Source: Bacteroidota bacterium (GTDB lineage: Bacteria; Bacteroidota; Bacteroidia; Flavobacteriales_C; GCA-002722245). Taken from it: a stretch of 64,000 nt of DNA. Positions 22,227-44,325 of this stretch are shown here, piece after piece (positions within the stretch are counted from its first letter, which is position 1; each line of letters starts with the position of its first letter). The translations under genes and the position numbers were made by a program. The notes under the pieces are model-generated. The model did not search any database. It saw only the letters and a list, made by a program, of their open reading frames with translations, and was not told the origin of the DNA. The stretch is from NCBI GenBank assembly GCA_026390935.1, contig JAPLEZ010000153.1:4052-68051 (forward strand), written 5' to 3'.

Positions 22227-22280
22227 CCGACTCTTCGCAAGCGCTTTATTTCCCAACAAATTAATTGTATTTTTAGGGCC

Positions 22281-24256: not shown

Positions 24257-25058
24257 TGAAGCAAAAAATGATGTGAGGGATTTCTGGAACCAGGCATCAT
24301 GTGGTGAGGAATTGTATTTGCACAGTCGAGATAGCGAAGGTTTTGAGCAGCAAATGAAAAAGCGTTACGAGCTGGAACCTTACATTTTAGATTTCGCAGG
24401 ATTTAAAGAAGGCGCCGGAAAAAAGGTATTGGAAATTGGTGTTGGATTGGGTGCTGATCATGAAATGTGGGCGCGTAACAATCCCGAATTGTTTGGTGTG
24501 GATTTAACTCCTCGTGCCATTGAAAATACAACTGAGCGTTTTAAAAGCAAAGGATTGAAATCGACTTTAAAAGTAGACGATGCAGAGAAATTATCTTTTG
24601 CCGACAATACTTTTGATATCGTTTATTCCTGGGGCGTATTGCACCATTCACCCAATACACCAACTGCCATCAACGAAGTACACCGTGTTTTAAAACCGGG
24701 CGGCACTGCAAAAATCATGATTTACTACAAGTACAGTTTTGTGGGATATATGTTGTGGGTGAAATATGCTTTACTGAAATTCAAACCTTTCACTTCCCTG
24801 AAAACCATTTACCACAAGTACTTGGAAAGTCCGGGAACAAAAGCCTACTCCAAAAAAGAAGCTTTTGAATTGTTTAAGAATTACAAAGACGTTAAAATTA
24901 CAACGGTGTTAACGCACGGCGATTTATTAACGTCGGCAGCGGGACAGCGCCATGAAGGAAAAATGCTCGACATTGCCCGCAAAATATGGCCGCGATTTTT
25001 AATCAAAACTTTTTTCCCAAGTCACGGATTATTCATGTTAATCACAGCTAAAAAATAG
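24243..25058 (+). CDS. Class I SAM-dependent methyltransferase
   Basis: VLEIGVGLGAD motif I, ...IVYSWGVLHH. Confidence 0.65.
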   Translation: MKENSEAKNDVRDFWNQASCGEELYLHSRDSEGFEQQMKKRYELEPYILDFAGFKEGAGKKVLEIGVGLGADHEMWARNNPELFGVDLTPRAIENTTERFKSKGLKSTLKVDDAEKLSFADNTFDIVYSWGVLHHSPNTPTAINEVHRVLKPGGTAKIMIYYKYSFVGYMLWVKYALLKFKPFTSLKTIYHKYLESPGTKAYSKKEAFELFKNYKDVKITTVLTHGDLLTSAAGQRHEGKMLDIARKIWPRFLIKTFFPSHGLFMLITAKK

Positions 25059-26947: not shown

Positions 26948-27396
26948 TTTTTTTTAAAAAAATAAGCACGCATATTTTCCAATCGGATTTCGAGTTTAAA
27001 AAATTGTTGATCAAAGCCTTTTTTTATTCCATGACGGTGCGTTTCATGATGCTGTTTGTGAAATACAATCGTTATGAAAAGCGTTTGGGGAAAAGAGGCG
27101 AAACAGATACTTACACCTTAAGCGAAAAAGAGTTTGCCATTGCACACAACATCGCAAAAGCTTTGAACGGTGTGAGCAATTATACTTTGTGGGAAAGCAA
27201 ATGTATGGTGCAGGCCGTATCGGCAAAATGGATGCTGCAAAAATATTCTATCCCAAGCACCATTTATTTTGGAATAGCAAAAGATGAAGACAATAAAAGT
27301 AAATTAAAAGCGCACGCGTGGTTGAAAGTGGGCGACTGTGTGGTTACTGGTCGTGCCGGTCATGAGCAATATAAAGTGGTTAATTTTTATTCCTGA
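26911..27396 (+). CDS. Lasso peptide biosynthesis B2 protein (transglutaminase-like Cys protease, leader peptidase)
   Basis: 161 aa; WESKCMVQAV (catalytic Cys), KAHAWLKVGDCVV (His/Asp) - pattern of lasso B2/McjB C-domain. Confidence 0.65.
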   Translation: MYFYLDGKISEMIFFKKISTHIFQSDFEFKKLLIKAFFYSMTVRFMMLFVKYNRYEKRLGKRGETDTYTLSEKEFAIAHNIAKALNGVSNYTLWESKCMVQAVSAKWMLQKYSIPSTIYFGIAKDEDNKSKLKAHAWLKVGDCVVTGRAGHEQYKVVNFYS

Positions 27397-27728
27397 CTTT
27401 ATTCCTCACAAAAACATAGGGCCAGAAGAGAGATCTTCAGCGGGAATCAATTAATCTATTGGTTTACCCATTTAAATTACAAAAACTAAATTTGACAGAA
27501 ATATTTTTGTATAGATCCTGCAAAAAGTTCAGGATGACGTTGGCTAGGTATCTCCTGAAGATTATGGTTCACCTTGGTCATCCTGAACTTGTTTCAGGAT
27601 CTATAAAAGAACCCGCCAGGCACTTCATGCATAGTGGATGACGACGTGGTGAAGCGAAGAATCGGGTATGAAAAATGGAATGTTTAATTTTTATTCCTGA
27701 CTTTATTCCTCACAAAAACATAGGGCCA
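27381..27728. repeat. 44-bp direct repeat (27381-27424 and 27685-27728) flanking a ~260-bp insert that carries an imperfect 25-bp inverted repeat (27514-27538 / 27577-27601)
   Basis: Copies identical by eye; copy 1 encodes the C-terminus of B2 (+), copy 2 encodes the C-terminus of the nucleotidyltransferase (-). Confidence 0.6.
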
Positions 27729-28811
27729 AAACAAAGGATATAAAAACGATAAAGTTGCTGGCAAGGAAACATATTTGTACATAAAAAACGGATAGTTGTA
27801 CAAATAAAATAAGCGTGCTCTGAAAGATCCGCTATGTTCCACTTCCACTGCCAGTCGTTTTAATTTGTATGAAACACTTTCACGATTGATAGGAGGATCA
27901 ATGCTTCCAGGAATATATAAAATGAGTGATCTTGCTTTTTCCTTGCTTTTAAATGTGATTTTATTTTTTATTTCCGATGAATAATTTTTTGTTTTTAAAA
28001 GATCTTCAAGTAATGCAAAAGTAATGGACAATTGTTTATCAAATCCATGTTTTTCAGAAAGACGGATCAGATTATTTATTTCTACTTCGGAGGATTTTTT
28101 AACTAAGATATCTAGATCCACCAACCACATCAATCTTTCCCATGCGTGCTGAAATCCGTGCAATAAAAGATATGCTAAATATTGGGCGTTGCCCATGGTA
28201 GAAAATTCAGTGTTGCCAATTTTAATCGTTTGCTTTTCTTTCCAAATATCTTGGAAAGAGAGCGGTAAAATATAGTTGTTTCTGAAGAGTCGCCAATGAA
28301 TTTCAAGGTTTACTTTTTTTTCAGGATGATGGTATAAAAACTGGTCGAAGTTTTTAATCAATACTTCTTTTTGATTTTCTTTTATTTCAAATTCCGGACT
28401 CGTTCTTTTCCATCCAGCAGCAAGCAATATGTTGTTGATGCGAAAGAGCTCGTTGGGCGCAATTAACAAGTCGATATCCAAAGAAGGGCGACAAAGTTTA
28501 TTGCCATGTAAAATCTGGTTGAGCGCCAAGCCCTTTAACAGCAGAAACGAAAGCTGATTTTGTTGAAATAGCGCATTCAGCTCTAAGAGTGTTTTTTGTT
28601 GTCGGAAAGCCTTGCGAGAATCTGCAGTTATTTTTTGTTGCAAGCTATCTGTAAATTGATCAGCCAAGAATAGTTGCAGTTTGTGCTTCACTATGGTAGC
28701 GTGTTCAATAGAGTATGAGGTAGCATGATGGGTGTTGCCCAAACGAAATGCCAAGAGCTCAGTGAGATTCACAAAGTCTTCACAATAAGTTGATTTTAAC
28801 GCGGCGCTCAT
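27684..28811 (-). CDS. Uncharacterised nucleotidyltransferase-family protein (PF14907-like) of the type found in kinase-containing lasso peptide clusters
   Basis: SLDIDLLIAPNELFRINNILLAAGWKR ... HWRLF pattern; genomic context next to HPr-kinase-like gene. Confidence 0.5.
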   Translation of the reverse strand: MSAALKSTYCEDFVNLTELLAFRLGNTHHATSYSIEHATIVKHKLQLFLADQFTDSLQQKITADSRKAFRQQKTLLELNALFQQNQLSFLLLKGLALNQILHGNKLCRPSLDIDLLIAPNELFRINNILLAAGWKRTSPEFEIKENQKEVLIKNFDQFLYHHPEKKVNLEIHWRLFRNNYILPLSFQDIWKEKQTIKIGNTEFSTMGNAQYLAYLLLHGFQHAWERLMWLVDLDILVKKSSEVEINNLIRLSEKHGFDKQLSITFALLEDLLKTKNYSSEIKNKITFKSKEKARSLILYIPGSIDPPINRESVSYKLKRLAVEVEHSGSFRARLFYLYNYPFFMYKYVSLPATLSFLYPLFWPYVFVRNKVRNKN

Positions 28812-28897
28812 CTGCAGCTAAAATACATACTTTTATAGTTAACAAGTTGTGCTTCTCAAAATATTGTGTTTTAGCGTTAATGAATTACTTTTACGCC

Positions 28898-29791
28898 ATG
28901 GAAAAAAGATATATAGCGGGCGGAATAGTGATTGAAACCGACATTCACTTTCCTGAATTTGTGGAAAGCACTGAACAGCCAGATGTTCAGGTGGTTTACG
29001 GAAAAGTTCCCGAAGAAATTGAAAATCCAAAATCACAGCGGGTTTTGGTGCAGTCGAATGAAAATGAAGTTTTATTGAAAATGCCCGGTGTTGCCAGATA
29101 TTTGGTAGAAGGGGATTCAAAAATTACCATTGAACTGACTGATGAAAATCGTAAAAATGATGCCGAAAAATACGTCCTCACTTTTATCTTAGGTGTATTG
29201 TCCTTCAAAAAAGGATTTTTCCCTTTGCATGGTGGTGGCGTGGTTCACAAGGGCGAAGCCTACTTGTTCACGGGGCATTCAGGTGCGGGAAAATCAACTA
29301 CTTTGGCCGGATTGGCACAAAGAGGTTTTCAGCCTTTGGCCGATGATATCTCCAATTTTTTTGTTCATGACGGAAAAGTATTTGTTCATCCTTGTTTTCC
29401 CCGATTTAAATTGTGGAAGGACAGCATGCAAATGCTCAACAATGAAGGAAGTGGTGAATACAAATTGGGAACCGACATTGAAAAATATTTAGTTCCTGTT
29501 GGTGATGATTTTCCTACAGGACCAATTCCTGTGAAACGAATTTATTTGTTGCAGGAAGATCGTGACGACAAAACATTTTTTAAAGAAATAAAGGGGAAAG
29601 AGAAGTTGATGAAGCTGAAGCAAAACTCTTATAAACCTTGGATGGTAAAGGCATTTAATCTCAATCAGAAACATTTTTCATTGATGAATGATATCGCCGC
29701 TCAAGTGGAATTGAAGGAGTTTCATCGTCCTTTCGATAAAAAGAAAATTAACGAGATGTATGAATTTTTGATCAAAGATATTCAGGGATAA
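28898..29791 (+). CDS. HPr kinase/phosphorylase C-terminal-domain-like Ser/Thr kinase (lasso peptide kinase candidate)
   Basis: LFTGHSGAGKSTTLAGLAQRGFQPLADD (HprK P-loop + LADD); ATG at 28898 chosen over track start 28790, which overlaps the divergent gene. Confidence 0.7.
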   Translation: MEKRYIAGGIVIETDIHFPEFVESTEQPDVQVVYGKVPEEIENPKSQRVLVQSNENEVLLKMPGVARYLVEGDSKITIELTDENRKNDAEKYVLTFILGVLSFKKGFFPLHGGGVVHKGEAYLFTGHSGAGKSTTLAGLAQRGFQPLADDISNFFVHDGKVFVHPCFPRFKLWKDSMQMLNNEGSGEYKLGTDIEKYLVPVGDDFPTGPIPVKRIYLLQEDRDDKTFFKEIKGKEKLMKLKQNSYKPWMVKAFNLNQKHFSLMNDIAAQVELKEFHRPFDKKKINEMYEFLIKDIQG

Positions 29792-30658
29792 GTGCAAGGA
29801 AAAAACAACATAATTTGGCTTACGTCTTATCCTAAATCGGGCAATACCTGGATGCGCATGTTTTTGCATGCGTTGAAAACCGGTTGTGATCATGTGGAAA
29901 ATTTTGAACAGATTGAAGGTTCTGATGGCATTGCTTCTTCACGCTCTTTGTTGGATGAGTTATTGGGAATATATACTTCCGACATGGTGGATATTGAAAT
30001 TCAGAAATTAAGAGCAGATGCTTATCGCTTGTATTCATCTGAATTGACAGAAGAAATTATTGTGAAAGTTCATGATGCTGCTTTTCATGGCGGCATATTG
30101 ACTTTCCCTAAAGAGGTCACAAAAAAAGTAATTTACATAGTTAGAAATCCTTTTGATATGGTGGCTTCTTATGCTAATCATATGGGAAGCAGCATTGAAA
30201 AATCAGTGCAGTCTTTATGCGATGGAAATGGATTTTTGGCTGGAAATAAAAAGAAACTAAACAACCAAGTTACCCAATACATGGGCTCGTGGAGCGATCA
30301 CTACAACTCCTGGAAAAATTTGTATCGTGAAAATATTGAGGTGATTCGTTATGAAGATATGCTCAATGATTCCTTCGCTACTTTTAATAAAGTGGTGAAA
30401 TGCATCGGATGGGAGAAAACAAATGAGGAAATTGAAAAGGCAATAAGTGTGAGCGATTTTAAAAATTTGCGGTCGGTGGAAGAGCAGGCTGGATTTAGAG
30501 AGAAACCGAAAGAGACAAAACATTTTTTCCGACAAGGAAAATCCGGACAATGGAAAAATGAAATTACCCCTGAACAAGCGAAAACACTGGTCGACAGGCA
30601 TTTTTATACTTTGTTGGAATTGAATTATATTGATGCAGCGGGAAATATTTTGGTATGA
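29792..30658 (+). CDS. Sulfotransferase-domain protein (PAPS-dependent)
   Basis: IIWLTSYPKSGNTWMRMF (5'-PSB motif), IYIVRNPFDMVAS (3'-PB region). Confidence 0.7.
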   Translation: MQGKNNIIWLTSYPKSGNTWMRMFLHALKTGCDHVENFEQIEGSDGIASSRSLLDELLGIYTSDMVDIEIQKLRADAYRLYSSELTEEIIVKVHDAAFHGGILTFPKEVTKKVIYIVRNPFDMVASYANHMGSSIEKSVQSLCDGNGFLAGNKKKLNNQVTQYMGSWSDHYNSWKNLYRENIEVIRYEDMLNDSFATFNKVVKCIGWEKTNEEIEKAISVSDFKNLRSVEEQAGFREKPKETKHFFRQGKSGQWKNEITPEQAKTLVDRHFYTLLELNYIDAAGNILV

Positions 30659-32490
30659 GTGCTATATTCGGATATACAGGAAACACAGGTAGTGCAGAAG
30701 CTCTGTCAAAATCACTTAGGCATTGGCAACCTGATAGGGAAGCTATTTTGCAAGATGATAAGGTATCGCTTGGAGCATTGGAATTGTTCAATGTTCCTGA
30801 ATCCCCTTTAACTCCGCAACCCTACCAATACAAAGATTTGATAGTGGTTGCTGATTGCAGAATCGACAATAGGGAAGAGCTGGCAAAGGAATTTTCCATT
30901 AAGGATATTTCAGCCCACGCCGATATTGAATACATCGCTTTAGCCTATGAAAAATGGGGAAACGATGCGCCAAAATATTTAGTGGGCGATTTTGCTTTTG
31001 CAATTTGGGATAAAAAAAGTGATCAATTATTTGCTGCTCGAGATCATTTTGGAATTAAAACTTTGTACTATTCTGAAGTAAAAGGCGAACTTGTTTTTGC
31101 TTCCGAAATGAAAGGAATTTTGGCTTATCCTGGATTTAAAATTTCGTACAATGAAGAGTATATCATTAGTGAATTTTCAGCCTTAGAGCTTTCTGCCACC
31201 AGCACGTTTTACGACAATATTCATTTATTGCCTCAGGGATTTTCTTTGATCTGGAAAAATAAAATCGTGAGAAGCTCAGCCTATTGGACTTTTGGTGAAC
31301 GAACAGTAGAAATCCCTATAACTGTTGCCGAACAAGAAGCGGAGTTCAATCGCTTGGCCTATCAAAGCGTTCGAGACCGTTTGCGTTCGTTTAGAAGATT
31401 GGGTGCGGAGTCCAGCGGAGGATTGGATTCAACAGGTATTGCAGCCATTGCCATGGAAACTTTGGGCAAGGGAAAAGAGTTTTATTCTTTTGGTTATGGA
31501 AGGGCAGCCAATCCTACCACCGAGCAGGATGATAAGGATGACATGGACATCGTCCGGGATATGTGCGTAAAATACGGTATTGAAAAATATCTCACTGTTG
31601 TGAGTGAAAATGATTTGAATGGTCAGGAAATGCTTGATTTGATGATTGAGGTTTGCGATGATTACGAAAGCAACGGTGTGCCTTTAATGTCGTTGGCTCT
31701 GTTGAAGCACGCTGTGAAGAATGATGTTGGTGTGATGCTTTCTGGTTGGGCCGGAGATCAGGGAGTAACTTGTACAGCCGAAGGATTTTTTGAAAACTTG
31801 TCGAGGGAAAAAAGATACCGCGAGTTATGGAAAGATTTGCGCAGAAAACATTCGCGCTTAAAGGCACCATCCCGTTTTCTTTTTTACGTGTTGAAGGGTT
31901 GGAATAGAAATTCGTTTTATAAAAAGAACAATAAAGTAGAAAGATTGAATTTGGAGCTGGGTCCTTTAAAAGAGGAACTCATTGCTAAATACAATTTGAA
32001 AGAATTGAGAGGAGTAAACGCTTTCTTAAAGGATTGTTCCGACATTCAAACCTATTTCAAAAGAAATATACAGTATAAAGGTATTGAAAAAAGAACTTGT
32101 GATCATGTATTGATCGGTCAACATTTTCGCATTGAATACCGCTTTCCAATGCTAGATGTAAGATTGTTGGAGTACATTTATAGCTTGCCTTTTAGTACGA
32201 TAGCTCCGCAAGGGAAATCACGATATTTATTTAAAAAGTTGGTTCAACCTCTAGTGCCTCCTCGCCTAATCAGCATGCATAAAAGTTATGTTGCAACAAC
32301 ACCTTTTATCTTTAAGTTTAATGAAGCTTTTCTTCCCTTTGTGCGCGAGCAATTTTATGCTAACAGAAATCCGCTTTTAGATAAATATTTTGCGGTGCAA
32401 AAATTGGAAAAAGAAGGCTCTGAAAAGGAAGCTAAAAAAAGAAATAAAAGCTACCTAAAATTATACTTCTTTGCAAAGAAGATGAAATAG
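30655..32490 (+). CDS. Lasso peptide cyclase (C protein; asparagine-synthetase homologue lacking the Cys2 glutaminase nucleophile)
   Basis: Starts MSAIFGY (Ser in place of Cys), ARDHFGIKTLYY, ESSGGLDSTGIAAIA PP-loop; context with B1/B2/precursors/ABC. Confidence 0.7.
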   Translation: MSAIFGYTGNTGSAEALSKSLRHWQPDREAILQDDKVSLGALELFNVPESPLTPQPYQYKDLIVVADCRIDNREELAKEFSIKDISAHADIEYIALAYEKWGNDAPKYLVGDFAFAIWDKKSDQLFAARDHFGIKTLYYSEVKGELVFASEMKGILAYPGFKISYNEEYIISEFSALELSATSTFYDNIHLLPQGFSLIWKNKIVRSSAYWTFGERTVEIPITVAEQEAEFNRLAYQSVRDRLRSFRRLGAESSGGLDSTGIAAIAMETLGKGKEFYSFGYGRAANPTTEQDDKDDMDIVRDMCVKYGIEKYLTVVSENDLNGQEMLDLMIEVCDDYESNGVPLMSLALLKHAVKNDVGVMLSGWAGDQGVTCTAEGFFENLSREKRYRELWKDLRRKHSRLKAPSRFLFYVLKGWNRNSFYKKNNKVERLNLELGPLKEELIAKYNLKELRGVNAFLKDCSDIQTYFKRNIQYKGIEKRTCDHVLIGQHFRIEYRFPMLDVRLLEYIYSLPFSTIAPQGKSRYLFKKLVQPLVPPRLISMHKSYVATTPFIFKFNEAFLPFVREQFYANRNPLLDKYFAVQKLEKEGSEKEAKKRNKSYLKLYFFAKKMK

Positions 32491-33261
32491 ATGGGTGCAA
32501 TTTCTTATATAAAAGCCCGAACAAGTAATTTCAGAAATGCCATTTGGCATTCTAATAAATTTGGCTATCGCGTCCTCCGTCCACTATATGCCTCTGCGCA
32601 TTTTACTTTTTCCTTTTTATTCAATTCAGCATATCGAAATAAAACCATTGATTACTTAAAATACCGTAAGCATTACCATCAATTCCCAAATTTTACAAAG
32701 GCGAATCGTTATCCCGATTTATTTAGCATTTGTCAGCGATACTTTAAGGACAAAGAGCAGGTGAGAATTCTTTCTTTCGGATGCTCAACGGGTGAAGAGG
32801 TGTATAGTATCAATGAATATCTTCCTGAAGCTACCATTGTAGGAACCGATATTAGTGAATACAACTTGAAAGAGTGCAATAAAAAAGAGAAGAAGAAAAA
32901 CATTTCATTTATTCATAGCTTGTCGGAAACCTACCAACAAAGCAAAAATTTTGACGCGATATTTTGTTTGGCGGTTTTACAACACAACGATAATTTCAAC
33001 AAAGACATACCAACTGCTACTAAATATACCTTCAGTCAGTTTGAAGAGCAGATCATTACTTTAGACGAAAAGTTAAAATCAGGAGGCCTGTTTTTCATTG
33101 ATCAAACTGATTTCAATTTTTTGGAAACGAAACTCCGAAATCAATATTTTCCTTTGGAAGTTCGAGGCAATCGTAAAAGCAATCCCCGACCTTTATACAA
33201 TTCCAAAAATATCAGAATTTCCAATGAGCATAACTGTTTCAGGGTTTTTTTGAAGAAGTAG
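32491..33261 (+). CDS. CheR-type SAM-dependent (carboxyl) methyltransferase
   Basis: VRILSFGCSTGEEVYSI matches CheR motif (WSAGCSTGEEPYS); 256 aa. Confidence 0.55.
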   Translation: MGAISYIKARTSNFRNAIWHSNKFGYRVLRPLYASAHFTFSFLFNSAYRNKTIDYLKYRKHYHQFPNFTKANRYPDLFSICQRYFKDKEQVRILSFGCSTGEEVYSINEYLPEATIVGTDISEYNLKECNKKEKKKNISFIHSLSETYQQSKNFDAIFCLAVLQHNDNFNKDIPTATKYTFSQFEEQIITLDEKLKSGGLFFIDQTDFNFLETKLRNQYFPLEVRGNRKSNPRPLYNSKNIRISNEHNCFRVFLKK

Positions 33262-33311
33262 TGGTGAATTAATTGAATTTCTTTTATTTTTAGAAAAATA
33301 CCACATTGATT

Positions 33312-33437
33312 ATGGAAACAAAAAATGAAATAGAAGTAAAAAAAGTTTGGGTTAAACCTGAATTGAAAGTTGAAGAATTGAATATAACGGCTGTCAAAGG
33401 CACTAATATATTAGAAGGTGGTCCCTACCGCACTTAA
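33312..33437 (+). CDS. Lasso peptide precursor A1: METKNEIEVKKVWVKPELKVEELNITA|VKGTNILEGGPYRT (predicted core after leader Thr-2)
   Basis: Read by hand; not in ORF track (41 aa); shares leader KKVWVKPELKVEE with A2/A3. Confidence 0.65.
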   Translation: METKNEIEVKKVWVKPELKVEELNITAVKGTNILEGGPYRT

Positions 33438-33471
33438 TAGCATGTATAATTGAAATAATAGCATTTGCATT

Positions 33472-33591
33472 ATGAAAACAGAAAAAGAAGTAAAAAAAGT
33501 TTGGGTTAAACCTGAATTAAAAGTTGAAGAAGTAGAAGTTACTAATGGTGGTGGGGCGCGAGTTAGAGAATCAGGGACTTACAGAACGTAA
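33472..33591 (+). CDS. Lasso peptide precursor A2: MKTEKEVKKVWVKPELKVEEVEVTN|GGGARVRESGTYRT
   Basis: Read by hand (39 aa); leader Thr at -2, Gly1, Glu8 for 8-residue macrolactam. Confidence 0.7.
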   Translation: MKTEKEVKKVWVKPELKVEEVEVTNGGGARVRESGTYRT

Positions 33592-33595
33592 TTGT

Positions 33596-33805
33596 TTATA
33601 TCTCTTTGAGATAGTTAAAGAGTTCAAAATCTTTTTTGTAAAAGTCTTTAACCATTTCAAGTAATTCATCATCGTAAAATTCCATGAAATTCAAGTGCTT
33701 AGAGCTATTGATTTCATGGAATTTTGGTTTTGATAGGTTTAAGGTATTGAAGAAGGACTGGAGGATGAGCTTCGAGACCAATTTACTGTGGTGGCATGTG
33801 TTCAT
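33596..33805 (-). pseudogene. Truncated duplicate of the 3' end of the sulfotransferase gene at 34024-34650 (C-terminal ~47 aa near-identical)
   Basis: ...NLSKPKFHEINSSKHLNFMEFYDDELLEMVKDFYKKDFELFNYLKEI vs C-terminus of 34024..34650 product; nucleotide repeat 33592-33750 ~ 34017-34175. Confidence 0.6.
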
Positions 33806-33893
33806 TGCTTGGATAGTTGGCTTGCTGTCGCAGCTACATCGTCAATCATTGTTATTATTATCTAGATTTATTATTTTCGAAAAAAAATCACTC

Positions 33894-34019
33894 ATGGAAA
33901 ACAAGAACGAACAAGAAATTAAAAAAGTTTGGGTTAAACCTGAAGTTAAAGTTGAAGAAGTAGATGTTACTAATGGTGGTGGGCCGGGATTGAGAGAAGG
34001 AGGGACTTACAGATCGTAA
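33894..34019 (+). CDS. Lasso peptide precursor A3: MENKNEQEIKKVWVKPEVKVEEVDVTN|GGGPGLREGGTYRS
   Basis: Internal Met of track ORF 33684..34019; same leader; only last 41 codons judged real. Confidence 0.7.
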   Translation: MENKNEQEIKKVWVKPEVKVEEVDVTNGGGPGLREGGTYRS

Positions 34020-34023
34020 TCGT

Positions 34024-34650
34024 TTATATCTCTTTGAGATAGTTAAATAGTTCAAAATCTTTTTTGTAAAGGTCTTTAACCATTTCAAGTAATTCATCAT
34101 CGTAATATTCCATGAAATTCAAGTGCTTAGAGCTATTGATTTCATGGAATTTTGGTTTTCCTAGGTTTAAAGCACTAAAGATGTGCTGAAGGTCATTGTT
34201 GAAGTTTTCCACCTTTCCTATAAAATCCATTTTGAGTTGGCGGTTTTCATTGACTAAGAATTCAAACTGCGGCAGCAAATGAATTTTTGATTCCAGATTT
34301 TCCTTACTAAGCATTTTTTTAATTTCGTCTCGATGTACTGAAGGACTTATGTTTTCAGTCTTTTTTATGAAGAAGTAATAGGAGATGAGTCTATCGTATG
34401 GATTGCGAACAAAAGCAAATTTATAATATTCGTTGATTAATGGCTTGAAGTAGGGTTCTACTTCCGTATACTTTAAATGACCATGTGGAATATCGGCCAG
34501 TTTTTTAAAAGGAAGTTTGCTCGACTTAAATAATGCAACCTGTTCAAGGTCCTTTTCAGACAGATGTTCCCGCAAAGCAAAGCGCACTGAATGTGTTCCT
34601 GTTTTAGGAATCGCAAAAAACATAAATTTATGTTGGTGGCTGATGATCAC
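34024..34650 (-). CDS. Sulfotransferase-family protein (second sulfotransferase of the cluster)
   Basis: FFAIPKTGTHSVRFAL (PKTGTT-type 5'-PSB motif), VRNPYDRLISYY. Confidence 0.6.
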   Translation of the reverse strand: MIISHQHKFMFFAIPKTGTHSVRFALREHLSEKDLEQVALFKSSKLPFKKLADIPHGHLKYTEVEPYFKPLINEYYKFAFVRNPYDRLISYYFFIKKTENISPSVHRDEIKKMLSKENLESKIHLLPQFEFLVNENRQLKMDFIGKVENFNNDLQHIFSALNLGKPKFHEINSSKHLNFMEYYDDELLEMVKDLYKKDFELFNYLKEI

Positions 34651-35240
34651 AATTCAAAGTCGGGTTTTGGAACATCATTGATTTCGGCATCCAGATATTC
34701 GAATATTAAGTGAATACGAGCTGTATTGCCGTCGTTTCTTACGGCGTGCATGCCTGAATTGTCCATTTCATAGGCTTTGCCTTTTTCAAAATAATAGTCG
34801 ATTCCTCTCACCGAAAAAACAACCTGCGGATTTGTAATTATTGGAATGTGAATTTTATGGGGAGGCCAGAAAATATAGTCAGAATCAATGTGTTCGGGAA
34901 TTATGGTACCCGGAACCATGCGCGCCAACATCACTCTCGGAAAAAATCCTTTTTTATAGCCATAAGGTTCTACGGCTTTTTGCATGATTGGCAGCAAAAC
35001 AGCTTTATACTTGTCCCACAATTCCAAATCGAAATAGACACAGGGACCTTCTAGTTTTTTACTCCAACGAAAATTGACGTGATTGACTTGTGATAGAGAG
35101 TATTTTTTATTTTGATTGACTTTAAAATCTTCCTCCTTATCCCATTCATATATCAATTCGGGAAGTATTTTAATTAAAGGGTTAATGTCAACTTCCCCTA
35201 AAAACCGCACGCTGTTTGTTTTGCAATTGTTTTTTTCCAT
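34647..35240 (-). CDS. Aspartyl/asparaginyl beta-hydroxylase-family (AspH/LpxO-like) Fe(II)/2-oxoglutarate oxygenase
   Basis: PEHIDSD...H...NSGMHAVRNDG...RIHLIF cupin-type metal-binding pattern; 197 aa soluble. Confidence 0.45.
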   Translation of the reverse strand: MEKNNCKTNSVRFLGEVDINPLIKILPELIYEWDKEEDFKVNQNKKYSLSQVNHVNFRWSKKLEGPCVYFDLELWDKYKAVLLPIMQKAVEPYGYKKGFFPRVMLARMVPGTIIPEHIDSDYIFWPPHKIHIPIITNPQVVFSVRGIDYYFEKGKAYEMDNSGMHAVRNDGNTARIHLIFEYLDAEINDVPKPDFEL

Positions 35241-35307
35241 TAGTCTTCCTATTGCTTGATAAAGATATCGGTAAAATTATCTTATTTTTGCTCAAAATCT
35301 AGGAATC

Positions 35308-35580
35308 ATGGACTTGAATAAAAAAATCTCCCGCAGCGATAATTATGTTTTCAATGAAGTGGATGGAGAGTTGGTAATGATGAACATTGAAACAGGTTCG
35401 TACGCGAGCTTAAATGAAACTGGGAAATCTATTTGGTTGCAGTTGGAAACAGCTAAAACATTGGATAGTGTGATTGAAGGTTTGATTGCCGAATATGAAA
35501 TTGATAGAGCTACTTGTGAGCAAGAAGTTTTTCCTTTCGTGGAAAAAATGGTAAAAGACGAAATACTGATTTTAGCTTAA
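35308..35580 (+). CDS. PqqD-like RiPP recognition element (lasso peptide B1 protein)
   Basis: 90 aa, NEVDGELVMMNIETGSYASLNETGKSIWLQLETAKTLDSVIEGLIAEYEID - PqqD family pattern. Confidence 0.65.
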   Translation: MDLNKKISRSDNYVFNEVDGELVMMNIETGSYASLNETGKSIWLQLETAKTLDSVIEGLIAEYEIDRATCEQEVFPFVEKMVKDEILILA

Positions 35581-35609
35581 TTTTTATTGTGAGGGCCTGG
35601 AGTTTCGTG

Positions 35610-36812
35610 CTATAACTCTGTAATTTTTATCTCCGATTTTAAATTCTTTAGAGCAAAATTCACTTTGAATTTATTTCCTTTTTGTGGTGAAATAAAATAC
35701 AGTTGAGAGCTCCAATGATTGCTGGGATCCACTTTTTGAGGATGCATAGAAAGAACGTTGTTGCTCGATAATTCTGTTTCAAAGTACAGTAGCATTCCGT
35801 TGAAAATTCCGGAATTTTCCAAAGAAAATATTTTTTCACAATCTTCTACTTTATCTACAGCGTTTGAAAAATCTAGATGAGCCAATTCTATTGGTTCAGA
35901 AAGCACTTTCCAGTTTTTAGTTTCAGTGCTATTGATGTTGATTTTTTGTAAAGTTTGTTTGTCGTTAAATTCAAGGAACGAGGAAAAATCAACACCATAC
36001 CATTCTTTCCAATGGACAATATTTTCTGGTGACAATTGATTTTGATGGTATTTTTTAAAATCTGCTTCAACCGCCATTCCAAATACTGTAATGCTTTTGG
36101 GAATTATAATCGCGATGGGAGTGAGTAATCTCTCTTTAGCATCTTTAAAGGTTTTAATAATGCCTTCCTGGAAGGGATCATTCCCAATGATTTCGCTTAC
36201 CAAAACGGTGGCTTTTTCGGGTAAGGTTATTTTTGTCGAATCGCCGTGGATCAAAGTTATTTTATCTTCCAGTCTGTTGGCTTTAAAAACGGCACTTGCC
36301 ACTTCAATAAATTCGGTCCTTTCAATGGCATACACATGCTTTGCTCCGGCCATGGCTGCAGTAGCGGCTAATATGCCATTGCCAGTTCCAATATCTAATA
36401 CAATGTCGTTTGGGGTTACGGTTTCACGAATGGCTTTTTGAAAAGCTAATGTTCGCGCTTTATCGTTCAACATTCGGATATGAACAGGAAAGGAATCAAA
36501 TTTTCCGCTATGGAAACCAAAGGTGTTTTTGCTTTCGTCTTTTACTTCAAAAAAGCCTTTTTTGAGTAAGTCGTGAAAATCAGCAGTAAATGTTATAAAG
36601 GAACTTTTATCTGTGCAGCTGTCAGCTATTTTTTTGAGTCCGTCTTCAATGCTAGTCCATTGTTGAAAAACCTCCACAAGTTTTAATACTTCATTTGATT
36701 TTTTTATCCTCAACTCCCCATTAGAAATAGTAAAGCCCGAATCGGTAAATTGAAAATTTACTTTTCTATTGAATCTAATGATGTCTTTTTTGTTTATTTT
36801 CATGGAAATCAA
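35610..36812 (-). CDS. Protein-arginine-N-methyltransferase-like class I SAM methyltransferase
   Basis: DIVLDIGTGNGILAATAAMAGAKHVYAIE...LVSEIIGN closely parallels PRMT1 motifs I/post-I/II (VLDVGSGTGIL...AGARKVIGIE...IISEWMGY). Confidence 0.5.
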   Translation of the reverse strand: MISMKINKKDIIRFNRKVNFQFTDSGFTISNGELRIKKSNEVLKLVEVFQQWTSIEDGLKKIADSCTDKSSFITFTADFHDLLKKGFFEVKDESKNTFGFHSGKFDSFPVHIRMLNDKARTLAFQKAIRETVTPNDIVLDIGTGNGILAATAAMAGAKHVYAIERTEFIEVASAVFKANRLEDKITLIHGDSTKITLPEKATVLVSEIIGNDPFQEGIIKTFKDAKERLLTPIAIIIPKSITVFGMAVEADFKKYHQNQLSPENIVHWKEWYGVDFSSFLEFNDKQTLQKININSTETKNWKVLSEPIELAHLDFSNAVDKVEDCEKIFSLENSGIFNGMLLYFETELSSNNVLSMHPQKVDPSNHWSSQLYFISPQKGNKFKVNFALKNLKSEIKITEL

Positions 36813-36862
36813 ACTTAGTTAAATTTTGTAACTTGCAGGAAATTCTAAAGCGATTAAATCAA

Positions 36863-36988
36863 ATGGAAAATAAAATCAAAGAAGGAAAAAAAGTTTGGAT
36901 TAAACCTGAATTGGAAATTGAAGATGTGCTTTTAACCGAAGGCGGTCGAAATACTCCTGCTCCCGAGAACAGCACTCAGCGTACTTAG
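36863..36988 (+). CDS. Lasso peptide precursor A4 (divergent core): MENKIKEGKKVWIKPELEIEDVLLTE|GGRNTPAPENSTQRT
   Basis: Read by hand (41 aa); leader motif KKVWIKPELEIE; C-terminal RT. Confidence 0.6.
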   Translation: MENKIKEGKKVWIKPELEIEDVLLTEGGRNTPAPENSTQRT

Positions 36989-37021
36989 TTCAAGTAGCTT
37001 TTAAATAAAGCGAAACTCTAT

Positions 37022-37963
37022 ATGTATGGCACTTTTCAAAGACTTCAGCTCAGTGAAATAGATGAGCAGCAAGTAAGTTTGTCGGAACGCTACATTTCCC
37101 CCAACATTCAAATATTTGAAAAGGCTTTTTGTGATTTTAGAAAAGAGGTAGATGAGATTTGGAAAGCGGGATTTTCATCAACAATAAGTGCCCAAAAAAA
37201 TTCCTTTTTAAAAGAGAAAATTGAACAAAGCAAGAAGAAATTATTTTCTTCGGAAATAGCTGCATATCCTGTTGGAATATGCTATCCTCTTTCAGAAATA
37301 GCATTTCAATTCCTTATGGAATTGGAAGTGCACGATCCAAAATCGGTATTTTATTCTTTGCGTGAATTCCTTGAAAAAGGCGGCATCATTAAAGTAATTT
37401 GGGGAGAAGTTCGGCATGAGTTTTTTCAAACTTCTTTGCAAATTGGAGAATGGTGTGTTGATGTTGCCAACGATACCGTGGATGTGAAAAAACCTAAGGT
37501 GGTGTGTTTTAAGCTTACTGCTTCCGATTGCCCTTTTCATGAAGTTTTATCAATAGAGCAATATGTGCAAATAAAGCGATCGTATCATGATTGCACCATT
37601 TATGTGAATACCATATTTCCGCATTTATTTCCTTACTTTCCACTGCTGGTGCTTCAAAATAAAGATGGAAAAATCAGTTTAGACACATCCATTTGTGTGC
37701 TTGATTTGACATTGAGCAAGGGTTATGACTTTGTTTTTTCTTCTTTGTTTCAACCATTGCCAAAAGAAGTTTTTGAGCGCATATCAATAAAGGTGGATCG
37801 TTTGCGCGCTAAGTATCAATATGCTGAATTGCTGGAGTGTAGAAATTGCGCACTTGAAGAATTGGCAAAACTAAGTGTTGCTCAAGTGTTAACCGATAAA
37901 GCCACCATGACCAAAGTTAAAGCCACTGTGAAATACATTAATTTTATGGTGAATGCTTTGTAA
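37022..37963 (+). CDS. Hypothetical protein inside lasso cluster (no recognisable motif)
   Basis: 313-aa ORF, good coding appearance, co-oriented between precursor A4 and ABC exporter. Confidence 0.3.
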   Translation: MYGTFQRLQLSEIDEQQVSLSERYISPNIQIFEKAFCDFRKEVDEIWKAGFSSTISAQKNSFLKEKIEQSKKKLFSSEIAAYPVGICYPLSEIAFQFLMELEVHDPKSVFYSLREFLEKGGIIKVIWGEVRHEFFQTSLQIGEWCVDVANDTVDVKKPKVVCFKLTASDCPFHEVLSIEQYVQIKRSYHDCTIYVNTIFPHLFPYFPLLVLQNKDGKISLDTSICVLDLTLSKGYDFVFSSLFQPLPKEVFERISIKVDRLRAKYQYAELLECRNCALEELAKLSVAQVLTDKATMTKVKATVKYINFMVNAL

Positions 37964-38001
37964 GTCTTTTGCTGCCCAACATAAAAGCTTATTTTTGATC
38001 A

Positions 38002-39660
38002 ATGCACAATCTTAAATCCATACTTTCATTTTTCAAATTGATGCTTTCGCATTTCAGGTGGAAGATTGTATTGATTGTGTTGTTCGGTATACTTTTTTCC
38101 TTTTTTCAGGGCGTAGGAATTGTAATGATTATTCCACTGCTGGAATCTTTTCAGAACAATGGAAATTCCATGTTTACCAAGGTGTTTGAGTTTTTGGGCT
38201 GGAGTGGTGGATTGAATCAATTGTTGTTGATTTATTTTTTGATTTTACTTTTTTATGCGCTCTTCAAAGCTTTGCAAATTTTATACACGCAACGCACGAT
38301 CGCACGTTTTTCCAATCAATTTGCAGTAGATGCCATGCAGCATTTGCTAACGGCCAATTGGGAATTTTATTTAAAAGTACCTTCTTCACAAATCATTAAT
38401 TTATTGAAAACCGAAAGTCGTTCGGTGAAAACATTGGCGCATTTTCTTTTTCAGGCAATGCAGGGCGCAATATTAATTGCCATTCAATTGTTTTTTGCTT
38501 GCTGGATTTCTGTTAAGCTCACAGCACTTTTGCTGGTGATACTGGTATTTTTATTTCTCATTCAGCGCTTTGTTTTTAAAGCCAATTACAATTTAGGAAA
38601 GGGAAATGTGGGCTTGTCGGAATTTTTACAAAAATATCTCAACGAGACTTTTAAAGGAATAAAACTATTGAAGTTACACCGACTGGAACTGAAAAAAGGT
38701 AAAGAGTACGAGGAACAAATGGAAAGAATTTACCAAAATGAAATTAAGAAGTCGACGATGGATGCTTTGAGCGATTTGCTGTACACCTTGTCGGGAGCGC
38801 TCATCATTATTTTAATGATAGGATTCAGCATTTCTTACAATTTACTTTCTATTACGTCCTTATTGGTTTTACTGGTTTTATTTTCCAGGGTAATTTCACA
38901 GTCTACAGCTCTTGTTCAAACTACAGGTTATATTGTGAATTTAATTCCATCTTTTAATCGCTTTGCTGAAATAGTTGATTTGGCGAAGGAAAGCGCACAG
39001 CAACCTTCAGAGAAGTTGGAAAGAAGAAATATTGCATCATTGGAATTGAAAAACATTCACTTCTCTTTTGGAGAGAAAAAAATATTGAACGATCTCAACA
39101 TCAAATTTGAAAAAGGAAAATTTTATGTGCTCACTGGTGCAAGCGGAGTGGGAAAAACCATTACTTCCGATTTGATTTGCGGATTGATTTCGCCTCAGCA
39201 AGGAGAAATCATCATTGATGGAAATATAGTGAGTATAGAGCTCTTAAAAAGCTATCAGGCGTCTATCGGTTATGTTTTGCAGGATACTGTTTTGTTTGGC
39301 ACTTCCATCCGCAACAACATCACTTTCATGGAAAATTATTCCGATGAACAAATTTTAAATGCTGCACATAAAGCCGGATTGAAAAGTCTTTTGGAAAAAT
39401 TGCCCGAAGGATTAGATGCTATTGTGAAAGAAGACAATCGCGGATTTTCGGGAGGTGAAATGCAACGCATTGCCATTGCCCGTGCGCTCATTCGCAAAAC
39501 TCCTTTGATTATTTTGGATGAGGTAACCAACGCTTTGGATAGAAAAAACGAAGACATTATTTTGGCTACGATCAACGAAATAAAAAAAGACAGCATTGTG
39601 ATTTTAATCACGCATAAAGAGTATTTGTTTGATTTGGCCGACGAAGTAGTACGTTTGTAA
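38002..39660 (+). CDS. ABC transporter, fused permease/ATP-binding protein (lasso peptide exporter D candidate)
   Basis: N-terminal 6-TM region; Walker A GASGVGKT, signature FSGGEMQRIAIARAL, Walker B LIILDEVTNALD. Confidence 0.8.
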   Translation: MHNLKSILSFFKLMLSHFRWKIVLIVLFGILFSFFQGVGIVMIIPLLESFQNNGNSMFTKVFEFLGWSGGLNQLLLIYFLILLFYALFKALQILYTQRTIARFSNQFAVDAMQHLLTANWEFYLKVPSSQIINLLKTESRSVKTLAHFLFQAMQGAILIAIQLFFACWISVKLTALLLVILVFLFLIQRFVFKANYNLGKGNVGLSEFLQKYLNETFKGIKLLKLHRLELKKGKEYEEQMERIYQNEIKKSTMDALSDLLYTLSGALIIILMIGFSISYNLLSITSLLVLLVLFSRVISQSTALVQTTGYIVNLIPSFNRFAEIVDLAKESAQQPSEKLERRNIASLELKNIHFSFGEKKILNDLNIKFEKGKFYVLTGASGVGKTITSDLICGLISPQQGEIIIDGNIVSIELLKSYQASIGYVLQDTVLFGTSIRNNITFMENYSDEQILNAAHKAGLKSLLEKLPEGLDAIVKEDNRGFSGGEMQRIAIARALIRKTPLIILDEVTNALDRKNEDIILATINEIKKDSIVILITHKEYLFDLADEVVRL

Positions 39661-39674
39661 AAATTTAATTTCTG

Positions 39675-40847
39675 TTGATTATGAATTTTTCTGAAGTGAT
39701 TCATCCTGTTACGGTAAAAGAATTTTTTGACGACTATTACGAAAAAAAACCTTTGTACATTGCACGAAACAATCCTTCGTATTACCATACTTTCCTGAGT
39801 GTGCAGGAGATTGATGCTTATTTACAATTGAAGCAAACTTATGCGCCAAATGTGAAAATGGCTTTTCAAGGAAAGGAAGTTTCTCCATTGTTGTTTTGTG
39901 ATCCCGCAGGTTCTGTTGTGCCATTTAGAGTGAACCCTGATAAAATGCTCGACTTGTTCAAACAGGGTTACACCATTAAATACGATAAGTTGCACCAAAC
40001 CTATCCTCCCTTGGCGCAAAAGGTATCGGCCATTGAGCAGGAGATTGGCATTAAAATTAGAACGAGTTTGTACATTACTCCAGAAAATTCACAGGGATAC
40101 GGTGTTCATACCGACAGGCACGATGTGTTGGCGTTGCAAATTAATGGTGCAAAAATTTGGAAAGTGAAATCTTCCACAGAAATTTTGCCTTCGGTTTACC
40201 AAACCAATATTGCAGTGAATTGGACGGAAGAAGGTGTTCAGGAAATTTGTTTGAAGGCGGGAGATTTTTTTTACTGTCCGCGTGGATTAGCGCACGATGT
40301 GTTTACCAAAGATCAGTCGTCCATACACTATACCCTCGGATTCAAACCCGTGTACGGCTACAATCTCGTTGAAAAATTAAGCGCCTTGGCTTATAAAAAT
40401 TCTTTTTTCAGAAGTGCCGTTCCAAATAATTTTTCATCTGTTGCAGACAGGGATTCATACCAAAAGAGATGGCAAAAAGAATTGGAAGAAATAATTGCGT
40501 TGATGAATTTTGATGATGTTGATGTTTTGGGAGAAGAAGCGACAAAGCAGTCCCAAATAAATTTTGAAGCCGGCAGGTTTATTGCGCAAATTTATCAGCC
40601 TTCACTGAGCGATAAATTTGTTCTTTGTTCAATACCTTGGGAATTAACTTTTACAAAAGTGGCTTGCAGAATTGATATTCTTGGTGGAAAGCACGACTTT
40701 CCTTATTTGCTAAAAGAGTTTTTTGAGAATATTAAAAGCGATACGCTATTCTCTACTTCGCTGGATAAATTGAACTTAAATGATGCTCAAAAGTTGAAAT
40801 TGATCAAAAGATTATTGAAAATACAATTGATTCGAAAGGTTGATTAG
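39675..40847 (+). CDS. JmjC/cupin-4-family Fe(II)/2OG oxygenase (RoxA/YcfD-like ribosomal-oxygenase fold)
   Basis: GYGVHTDRHDVLALQINGAKIWKV (HxD) ... CPRGLAHDV (distal His). Confidence 0.55.
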   Translation: MIMNFSEVIHPVTVKEFFDDYYEKKPLYIARNNPSYYHTFLSVQEIDAYLQLKQTYAPNVKMAFQGKEVSPLLFCDPAGSVVPFRVNPDKMLDLFKQGYTIKYDKLHQTYPPLAQKVSAIEQEIGIKIRTSLYITPENSQGYGVHTDRHDVLALQINGAKIWKVKSSTEILPSVYQTNIAVNWTEEGVQEICLKAGDFFYCPRGLAHDVFTKDQSSIHYTLGFKPVYGYNLVEKLSALAYKNSFFRSAVPNNFSSVADRDSYQKRWQKELEEIIALMNFDDVDVLGEEATKQSQINFEAGRFIAQIYQPSLSDKFVLCSIPWELTFTKVACRIDILGGKHDFPYLLKEFFENIKSDTLFSTSLDKLNLNDAQKLKLIKRLLKIQLIRKVD

Positions 40848-40985
40848 GTGTGGTACTCAGCGTCTTCCCTTATGTTCAATATACCACCACCTAGCGTGGA
40901 ATCTAGCTCTAAATCAGTCATTGCAGGAGCAACCCATTGTTTTTTTTCTGGTGTCATAAGAATTAATTTTTTCAAAGATAGTAAT

Positions 40986-42005
40986 TTATAGTTTAGGATA
41001 CTGCATGCTGATGCAGTGAATGGAGCCATGCTGCTTGATTAGCGGAACACTGTTGATGGAAATAATCTCTTTATCAGGGAATATGCTTTGCATTATTTTC
41101 AGTGCCTCTGCGTCTTTGCTGGAATTGTAAATTGGAAACAAAATCGCATCATTCATAATTAAAAAATTGGCGTAGGTGGCCGGAAGTCTTTCGCCATCGT
41201 CATCATAAGCTGCATCAGCCATAGGGAGGGCAACGAGTTTGTATTTTTCACCTTGCAAATTAGTGCAACGTTGCAGTTCTTCTTCCATCTTGCTCAATTC
41301 GCTGTAATGCTCATCGTTGGGATCATCGCACTTCACATAGGCAATGGTATTTTCGTTGCAGAAACGTGCGAGGGTATCAATGTGACTGTCGGTATCGTCT
41401 CCAGCTAGATAACCATGATTGATCCAGATGACTTTTTCAACGTGCAGCAATTCCTTGAGTAGCTTTTCAATTTCGGTGATGGTCCATTGAGGATTACGGT
41501 TTTCTTCCAGCAAACATTCGCTGGTAGTCATTAGCACGCCTTGTCCGTCTACTTCCAAGGATCCGCCTTCTAGCACAATGTGGTTTAAATCTTTTATTGT
41601 CCAGGAGGAAGGAAAAGCTTTTGCATCATAAAGTTTTTGAGTGATGGCGCTGTCTTTTTCAGCAGCGAATTTTTTGCCCCAGCCGTTGAATTGAAAATCT
41701 AAAACAACAGGCTTTCCATTTTCTAAAATGGTAATTCCGCCGTGATCTCTTGCCCAGGTATCGTTCACATCACATTGGTAAATTTCAATGTTGTTGAGGT
41801 TACAATGTTGCACATAAGATTTTACTTCTTCCACATTTTGTGCGGCGATGATGAGTTTTTGACGCTTTGCAATTTCAAAAGCAATTTTTTTGTAGCACTC
41901 TTGAACCTCATCCCAAATGTCGGCCCAGTCGGTGTTTTGGTGAGGCCAGGTGAGTTGTACCGCGCTTTGCGGAAACCATTCGGGGGGGAAGAAGTTATGA
42001 TTCAT
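40986..42005 (-). CDS. Agmatine deiminase / Porphyromonas-type peptidylarginine deiminase family protein
   Basis: N-term FFPPEWFPQSAVQLTWPHQNTDW (cf. AguA MPAEWEPH..TWMxWP), C-term GSIHCISMQ (catalytic Cys, cf. GGIHCITQQ). Confidence 0.75.
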   Translation of the reverse strand: MNHNFFPPEWFPQSAVQLTWPHQNTDWADIWDEVQECYKKIAFEIAKRQKLIIAAQNVEEVKSYVQHCNLNNIEIYQCDVNDTWARDHGGITILENGKPVVLDFQFNGWGKKFAAEKDSAITQKLYDAKAFPSSWTIKDLNHIVLEGGSLEVDGQGVLMTTSECLLEENRNPQWTITEIEKLLKELLHVEKVIWINHGYLAGDDTDSHIDTLARFCNENTIAYVKCDDPNDEHYSELSKMEEELQRCTNLQGEKYKLVALPMADAAYDDDGERLPATYANFLIMNDAILFPIYNSSKDAEALKIMQSIFPDKEIISINSVPLIKQHGSIHCISMQYPKL

Positions 42006-42032
42006 CTTGTAGTTTTGAGGTAAAAATAATTT

Positions 42033-44321: not shown

Positions 44322-44325
44322 ATCC

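Follow-up and report, generated by a model that had tools for sequence, protein, structure and literature searches.

Clusters for ribosomally synthesised peptides that undergo modification after translation (RiPPs) can encode several precursors that combine conserved leaders with hypervariable cores, as is known for the prochlorosins (ProcA) and for lasso clusters such as those of the caulonodins. Gene conversion between tandem paralogues (concerted evolution) is also known in bacteria. General background on multi-precursor RiPP and lasso clusters is available (PMC8498205, PMC10783134), and lasso clusters containing an HPr-kinase-like protein, a nucleotidyltransferase and a putative sulfotransferase have been described in Firmicutes, paeninodin and pseudomycoidin being examples of tailoring by kinase and nucleotidyltransferase (PMC8498205, PMC4289311). 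Here, we analysed a stretch of 64,000 nucleotides (the window) from a metagenome-assembled genome (MAG) of a Bacteroidota bacterium (GCA_026390935.1, contig JAPLEZ010000153.1, positions 4,052 to 68,051; locus tags NT150_153xx), in which a direct repeat lies within a lasso-peptide-type gene cluster. The repeat consists of two paralogous units, each formed by a lasso-type precursor gene and, in antisense, the last ~50 codons of a convergent Sulfotransfer_2 gene. The downstream unit, with precursor A3, ends in the intact gene, and the upstream unit, with precursor A2, ends in a remnant without the catalytic N-terminus. A duplication that left a pseudogene remnant behind is very probable, and the locus as a whole is best explained, with some confidence, as a segmental duplication of older date, of which a tract was later homogenised and the core diversified.

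The repeat and the sulfotransferase remnant

The features on which the argument rests are the following.

33312..33437, plus strand: precursor A1 (METKNEIEVKKVWVKPELKVEELNITAVKGTNILEGGPYRT), NCBI locus tag NT150_15320, also recovered from the list of open reading frames (ORFs), as a member of leader repeat family D2 and through protein-database match P0122
33472..33591, plus strand: precursor A2, 39 aa, core GGGARVRESGTYRT, from the ORF list
33481..33764: repeat copy 1, most of A2 and the sulfotransferase 3' remnant
33596..33805, minus strand: sulfotransferase remnant ORF of 69 codons, from the ORF list, a family hidden Markov model (HMM) and alignment
33675..33726, plus strand: long AU-rich hairpin in the remnant (copy 1), followed by GGUUUUGAUAGGUUU; folding energy -23.9 kcal/mol, z -4.9
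33765..33893: non-duplicated spacer between the repeat copies
33894..34019, plus strand: precursor A3, 41 aa, core GGGPGLREGGTYRS, NCBI locus tag NT150_15325
33909..34192: repeat copy 2, most of A3 and the intact sulfotransferase 3' end
34024..34650, minus strand: intact gene of the Sulfotransfer_2 family, 208 aa, Pfam PF03567 at 5.9e-21, convergent with A3
34107..34162, plus strand: the same hairpin within the intact sulfotransferase coding sequence (34107-34150), followed by UUUUGGUUUUCC; folding energy -20.5 kcal/mol, z -3.75

A repeat search returned the two copies as a direct repeat of 284 nt at a spacing of 428 nt, with 27 mismatches (90% identity), and the same tract was recovered by an ungapped comparison at offset 428 and by local alignment. 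The longest exact run common to both copies is 53 nt (33679-33731 = 34107-34159), compared with 14 nt for the longest repeat found when 32000-36000 was shuffled 50 times. The similarity is not restricted to the precursor gene and reaches ~170 nt beyond the stop codons of A2 and A3, into the 3' end of the Sulfotransfer_2 gene on the minus strand. An initial annotation of this stretch had proposed that the precursor and the 3' end of the convergent sulfotransferase were copied ~420 bp upstream, and a segmental duplication is indeed borne out, at an offset of 428. The recurrence which it placed at 33592-33750 is real, with 10 mismatches in 159 nt, and only its register needs correction by 3 nt, 33592 pairing with 34020 and not with 34017. 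The copy runs past the gene into the flank and a truncated neighbour was left behind; the right breakpoint of the local segmental duplication lies inside the sulfotransferase gene. The stop codon of A3 is 4 nt from that of the convergent sulfotransferase, so any copy that takes in the 3' untranslated region of the precursor must include sulfotransferase coding sequence.

The last 48 residues of the remnant match the C-terminus of the intact sulfotransferase at 45 positions, in agreement with the near-identical C-terminus that had been noted for this 69-codon ORF. When compared with a family HMM derived from 120 homologues, the remnant aligns only with positions 157-206 of 208; this HMM detected nothing else in any frame between the methyltransferase and the sulfotransferase genes. 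The N-terminal PKTGTHS region of the enzyme is not present in the remnant, and the 69-aa ORF has no match in Pfam or NCBIfam. At the nucleotide level, 33596-33742 corresponds to the sulfotransferase 3' end at high identity (5/147 mismatches), 33743-33764 is 64% identical (8/22 mismatches), and 33765-33805 is unrelated and cannot be aligned (33/41 mismatches). The proportions of synonymous and non-synonymous differences (pS and pN, by Nei–Gojobori counting) between remnant and intact gene are 0.043 and 0.033; the resulting pN/pS of ~0.8, which is based on few sites, is as expected if one copy is unconstrained. With homology to only part of its parent (the last ~50 codons), the catalytic region gone and constraint relaxed, the remnant is a sulfotransferase pseudogene fragment, as had been proposed, and the intact gene at 34024-34650 is its parent. 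The intact protein matches an NCBI MAG protein at 100% and has orthologues at 86% and 68% identity. A genome-collection scan with the sulfotransferase gave no orthologous locus, only cyanobacterial and Francisellaceae homologues at 29-33% identity, and an exact-protein look-up of the window's sulfotransferase, cyclase and P0001 returned no entry.

Three lasso-type precursors lie in tandem, beginning with A1; A2 starts 34 nt past the A1 stop codon, with no stable structure in the gap. A1 and A3 carry consecutive NCBI locus tags, and A2 and the sulfotransferase remnant seemingly have none; because of these consecutive tags, A2 is probably an intact-looking precursor that was left unannotated. 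For annotation, the locus thus flags A2 as an intact and probably missed precursor, and the sulfotransferase fragment should not be counted as a gene. The short A1–A2 intergenic region (33435-33464) contains two copies of a 9-nt direct repeat, TAATAGCAT, at a distance of 21 nt. The A1 stop codon falls in the first copy, and the repeat is possibly a vestige of the junction created when A1 and A2 were duplicated.

As read from the sequences, A1 to A4 (A4 lies further downstream in the cluster) have Thr at position -2, and core position 8 or 9 is Glu, a rule that their relatives P0125-P0128 also obey, and an exact 24-nt block in the leaders encodes KKVWVKPE. Three related, distinct lasso-type peptides would be the predicted products of this one site. 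The precursors also have a common C-terminal (T/P)YR(T/S) or xxR(T/S) motif. Several predicted cores start with Val or Lys and not with Gly, namely those of A1 (T-A, then VKG, with E8), P0126 (T-E, then VKT, with E9) and P0127 (T-E, then KAP, with E7); such first residues are unusual for lasso macrolactam formation, provided the inferred cleavage site holds. In the precursors of L007, a related cluster from the JGI, Val replaces Thr at -2 (154-469).

Age of the duplication and divergence of the copies

The remnant–spacer–precursor junction recurs in L009, a 542-nt contig from an independent ENA sample (ERZ27249284). This contig opens with a sulfotransferase 3' piece that is 94.8% identical to the intact gene of the window over 77 nt, which is followed by a degraded stretch, a spacer and the precursor P0127, whose core, EKAPIRREGLTYRT, is unrelated. 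Past the conserved piece, the L009 remnant is seemingly frameshifted and contains stop codons, according to a reading of the reverse complement. The window spacer at 33802-33885 is homologous to L009 136-218, with a local alignment score of 102 versus 22.5 +/- 4.1 for shuffled sequences and an identity of ~80% (17/83 mismatches). Since the junction is common to the window and L009, the remnant–spacer–precursor arrangement appears to predate the split of the two lineages. Silent divergence between the two units is uniform along the tract at ~4% (pS 0.044 for A2/A3, 0.043 for the remnant), and with an older, shared junction this value would stem from subsequent homogenisation, or from constraint, and would not date the founding duplication.

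A3 has a mosaic make-up. The spacer ahead of it and its first codons are like those of P0127 in L009 (GAACAAGAA, EQE), and from the conserved leader through 170 nt past its stop codon it matches A2. A3 is closer to its paralogue A2 in the same genome than to its positional counterpart, P0127 of L009, in a comparison with one other genome. Between A2 and A3, there are 3/18 mismatches and a 2-codon indel in the leader N-terminus and 3/54 mismatches in the conserved leader. With regard to L009 itself, the spacer between its two precursors (351-504) is significantly similar to the 3' end of the window's methyltransferase gene together with the region upstream of A1 (score 47 vs 25.3 +/- 4.6), and the array would thus hold flanking-gene remnants of two kinds; the first 39 nt of the two L009 precursors are identical.

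According to the history that we propose, the founding duplication, dated by way of L009, would have taken place before the split from the L009 lineage, and a further short duplication would have given rise to A1 and A2. A tract of 260-284 nt, extending from the leader through the second 3' hairpin, would have been homogenised later between the units, likely through gene conversion or unequal recombination and with the intact-gene unit as the most likely donor. The outcome would be the ~4% silent divergence in the tract and the unalignable sequence just outside it, and the step in mismatches after 33742 would be the conversion boundary, with the homology beyond that point statistically insecure. 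The statistical support for the homogenisation account is moderate, and we regard an older duplication followed by homogenisation, taken on its own, as evenly balanced between true and false.

Several points weigh against this history. Outside the window, the junction is known from one contig, L009, which may be orthologous or paralogous to the window locus. The difference between the tract (5/147 mismatches) and the spacer (~8.5/83 per lineage, ~10%) reaches p ~0.03 by a rough estimate from small counts. The homology of 33743-33801 to the sulfotransferase is not significant (60 of 500 shuffles reach its score) and is therefore unproven, so the copy may instead end near 33742-33764 in a sharp, young breakpoint, past which the sequence is unrelated. 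The spacer has no other match in the rest of the window or in the comparison loci, and the pN/pS of the core given below is based on 0.5 synonymous versus 6.5 non-synonymous differences. A derivation of the spacer from a decayed methyltransferase 3' end plus the A1 upstream region, which a clean tandem junction would predict, was tried and gave no significant similarity (score 24 vs 22 +/- 3.9). The spacer contains a promoter-like motif of the Bacteroidetes type by sequence reading, with TTG at 33849-33851 and, after 20 nt, TATTTTCG at 33872-33879, which is a putative promoter by inference only; a consensus sigma-70 promoter scan gave nothing useful.

The cores of A2 and A3, which the initial annotation had quoted correctly, differ at 7 of 42 nucleotides, in line with its statement that the cores differ and the leaders stay alike. 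This proportion is higher than the 5/147 of the sulfotransferase tract (Fisher p 0.006). Over the whole gene, pS is 0.044 and pN 0.128, and for the 14-codon core alone, pS is 0.042 and pN 0.217. All five altered core codons are non-synonymous (A4P, R5G, V6L, S9G and T14S), located at ring positions 4-6, at position 9 and at the C-terminal Thr/Ser, and the conserved core residues have identical codons in A2 and A3 throughout. Statistically, on few sites, these counts support the conclusion that since the proposed homogenisation the core has gained amino-acid changes ~5x faster than silent sites, a pattern that fits diversifying selection on the product with leader and flanks held constant.

Amplification in situ, as initially suggested, is supported by the copy number at orthologous loci. 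Between the methyltransferase and sulfotransferase genes, L007 (sulfotransferase 68% identical, same gene order) has 50 bp and no precursor, and ENA ERZ27296333 (sulfotransferase 86% identical) has, on its gene map, one 41-aa precursor in a gap of 194 bp; L008 provides the DNA of such a single ERZ27296333-type precursor together with the end of its sulfotransferase gene. Precursor counts at the site are thus 0 for L007, 1 for ERZ27296333/L008 and 3 for the window, which indicates that the amplification took place in situ. The two precursors of L007 are located after PqqD. There, at 146-607, tandem precursor units of 158 nt, 88% identical and spaced by 187 nt, have between them a stretch of 58 nt that copies the PqqD 3' end at 98% identity, an independent capture which implies that duplications taking neighbouring gene ends along are recurrent in this cluster family. 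The first L007 unit has ~86 extra nt, apparently flanked by a direct repeat, ACATATGAAA, as read from the sequence. The gene map of ERZ27296333 shows one more precursor behind PqqD and another behind the PRMT-like gene, and in L010, a related cluster that lacks a sulfotransferase, PqqD is followed by three precursors in tandem. A metagenome scan with the precursor profile yielded only L010 and L011, the latter not a lasso locus. After PqqD, there are accordingly 0 precursors in the window, 1 in ERZ27296333, 2 in L007 and 3 in L010, and after the PRMT-like gene there is 1 each in the window (A4) and in ERZ27296333.

Competing explanations

A first alternative is that the sulfotransferase piece is a functional 3' module of the precursor, which would terminate transcription or stabilise the RNA and might also act on the sulfotransferase mRNA as an antisense sequence, and that selection on it, instead of or alongside gene conversion, keeps the ~95% identity seen in the window and in L009. 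Both copies form strong hairpins on the precursor strand, the whole 149-nt 3' regions having z values of -5.8 (copy 1) and -3.05 (copy 2), and copy 1 contains another hairpin at ~33605-33661. The gap of only 4 nt between A3 and the sulfotransferase means that any precursor terminator must sit within sulfotransferase coding sequence, and the predicted hairpin at 34107-34162 might terminate the A3 transcript or stabilise its 3' end. The AU-rich stem in the A3 copy is followed by UUUUGGUUUU, and the high-identity tract stops 1-2 nt after this U-run. In L008, with its one convergent precursor, the corresponding codons also form a hairpin, whose inner stem differs (z -4.68); L007, without a convergent precursor, shows no hairpin (z +1.30); and a U-G wobble preserves the hairpin of the L009 remnant (z -2.8). 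Over 77 nt, identity to the intact gene is 94.8% for each of the two remnants, and the adjacent spacers are 70-80% identical between them. However, the consensus terminator scan and Rfam gave no match, the L008 hairpin is not followed by a U-run, and covariation among five sequences is not significant, 99 of 500 shuffles reaching the observed score. The correlation between hairpin and convergent precursor comes from three lineages, and RNA selection leaves unexplained why A2 and A3 have identical core codons at all conserved residues. We therefore regard selection on an RNA module as possible and rather unlikely. A combined version, in which the remnant is a selected portable 3' module and recurrent conversion keeps leader and module constant with the core free to vary, appears less likely still; if true, it would amount to a built-in cassette architecture for lasso peptide diversification, with a hairpin embedded antisense in a tailoring gene and possibly regulating it.

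In its simplest form, the duplication would have been one recent illegitimate-recombination event that copied the precursor plus 170 nt of sulfotransferase in tandem, ~4% silent divergence ago. The two direct copies 428 nt apart, the low and uniform silent divergence (~0.04, in precursor and remnant alike) and the variation in copy number between relatives all speak for it. However, the unit of a simple tandem duplication should equal its period, with the copies abutting, and here only 284 of the 428 nt are repeated, since the 144 nt between the copies (33765-33908) match neither 34193-34336 nor 33337-33480. The spacer by the remnant is common to L009 at ~80% identity with an unrelated precursor core there, and the 5' end of A3 and its upstream region are like L009 and unlike A2. 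These data suggest that genomes of the L009 type, which have the same junction, are diverged by far more than 4% genome-wide. On this evidence a simple tandem duplication, as the initial annotation had it, is not borne out, nor is its description as recent in the form stated, and we consider this reading improbable.

That the array is an assembly artefact, with two strain variants of a single precursor locus wrongly joined in tandem, appears very improbable. The window does come from a MAG, and the copies resemble allelic variants. However, their exact common runs are at most 53 nt, below read length and large assembler k values, so reads anchor uniquely; the 144-nt unique spacer and the truncated remnant cannot be produced by collapsing alleles; and the independent L009 has the same junction. 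In addition, L006, a Logan contig (SRR20698652) that is 100% identical to window 34130-44563 over 10,434 nt, breaks exactly at the repeat boundary, so both continuations exist in the reads. It begins 30 nt inside the 53-nt run, its first 31-mer (L006 1-31 = window 34130-34160) being the first that is unique to copy 2; with k = 31, which we take to be the Logan setting, this start is as expected for a graph branch at a true repeat. The assembly looks sound. As a side observation, the break of the short-read graph at the repeat implies that short-read assemblies of such arrays are usually fragmented.

Targeted hypermutation by a diversity-generating retroelement, in which one repeat is the template and the other the target, would account for near-identical repeats that differ mainly within a short coding segment, and can be dismissed because the 27 mismatches are mixed and not confined to template adenines (A/T 6, G/A 4, T/G 3, G/T 3, T/C 3 and others), no reverse transcriptase is found among the neighbouring genes scanned, and non-coding and antisense sequence also lies inside the repeat.

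The gene cluster and its comparison with known systems

Beyond the repeat, the cluster comprises the following genes.

26911-27396: B2 protease, NCBIfam NF033537 lasso_biosyn_B2 at 81.9 bits (cut-off 33), Pfam Transglut_core3 at 1.7e-20
27684-28811, minus strand: NTP_transf_5
28790-29791: HPr-kinase-like
29792-30658: Sulfotransfer_1
30655-32490: Asn-synthase-like cyclase, within the Pfam Asn_synthase threshold; best NCBIfam match NF033535 lasso cyclase, 268 bits against a cut-off of 525
32491-33261: class I methyltransferase (MT)
34647-35240, minus strand: Asp/Asn hydroxylase
35308-35580: PqqD (B1), Pfam PqqD at 60.7 bits (cut-off 23.4); best NCBIfam match lasso_PqqD_Bac, 74 against a cut-off of 80
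35610-36812, minus strand: PRMT-like methyltransferase
36863-36988: precursor A4
37022-37963: 313-aa protein with no family match
38002-39660: ABC exporter
39675-40847: JmjC protein

The B2 leader protease, the PqqD-like B1 and the precursors, which have Thr at -2 and offer an Asp/Glu acceptor within core positions 7-9, are those of a lasso cluster. The tailoring set at 26911-40847 is very rich and includes two sulfotransferases of different Pfam families and an Asp/Asn beta-hydroxylase. A block upstream of the lasso genes, which may belong to the cluster, encodes two further homologues of Asn synthase (20415-22226 and 25058-26947) as well as two glycosyltransferases and one methyltransferase; the second homologue is closest to the XrtA/PEP-CTERM amidotransferase or AsnB, and the block 20415-26947 is kept in L007 at 84% nucleotide identity. 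Just past the JmjC gene, at 40986-42005 on the minus strand and conserved in L006, is a peptidyl-arginine/agmatine deiminase of the Porphyromonas type (PF04371, 4.9e-119), which may be either a housekeeping enzyme or a citrullinating tailoring enzyme for Arg-rich cores.

Within a limited literature library, neither this Bacteroidetes cluster type nor precursor duplications that carry neighbouring gene ends were found described. The kind of event is already known and no new mechanism is involved; the refinement is modest and consists in the mosaic age, a probable conversion and a possible embedded 3' element. The remnant marks the duplication and doubles as a near-neutral internal yardstick, against which the core changed faster than its flanks, so the locus offers a dated, internally controlled snapshot of a RiPP cluster enlarging and varying its product set. 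For natural products research, it is a heavily tailored, uncharacterised Bacteroidetes cluster and a source of three predicted peptides.

The locus resembles the prochlorosin and caulonodin clusters in that tandem precursors are served by one enzyme set, the leaders are alike, the cores differ and the copy number varies; it differs from them in that the footprint of the duplication is visible here, ~50 codons of a convergent tailoring gene having been carried along. With the paeninodin and pseudomycoidin clusters it has in common the split B1/B2, an Asn-synthase-like cyclase, the HPr-kinase-like and NTP_transf_5 proteins, the sulfotransferases, the ABC exporter and precursors ending in Ser/Thr; it differs from them in its Bacteroidetes MAG host, in a far larger tailoring set, with two methyltransferases among others, and in having up to three precursor sites. 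As in bacterial gene conversion, a high-identity tract lies within an older, more diverged duplication. Unlike in typical conversion, however, the core inside the tract is not homogenised, and would have diverged later under selection or through patchy conversion, as judged from two genomes.

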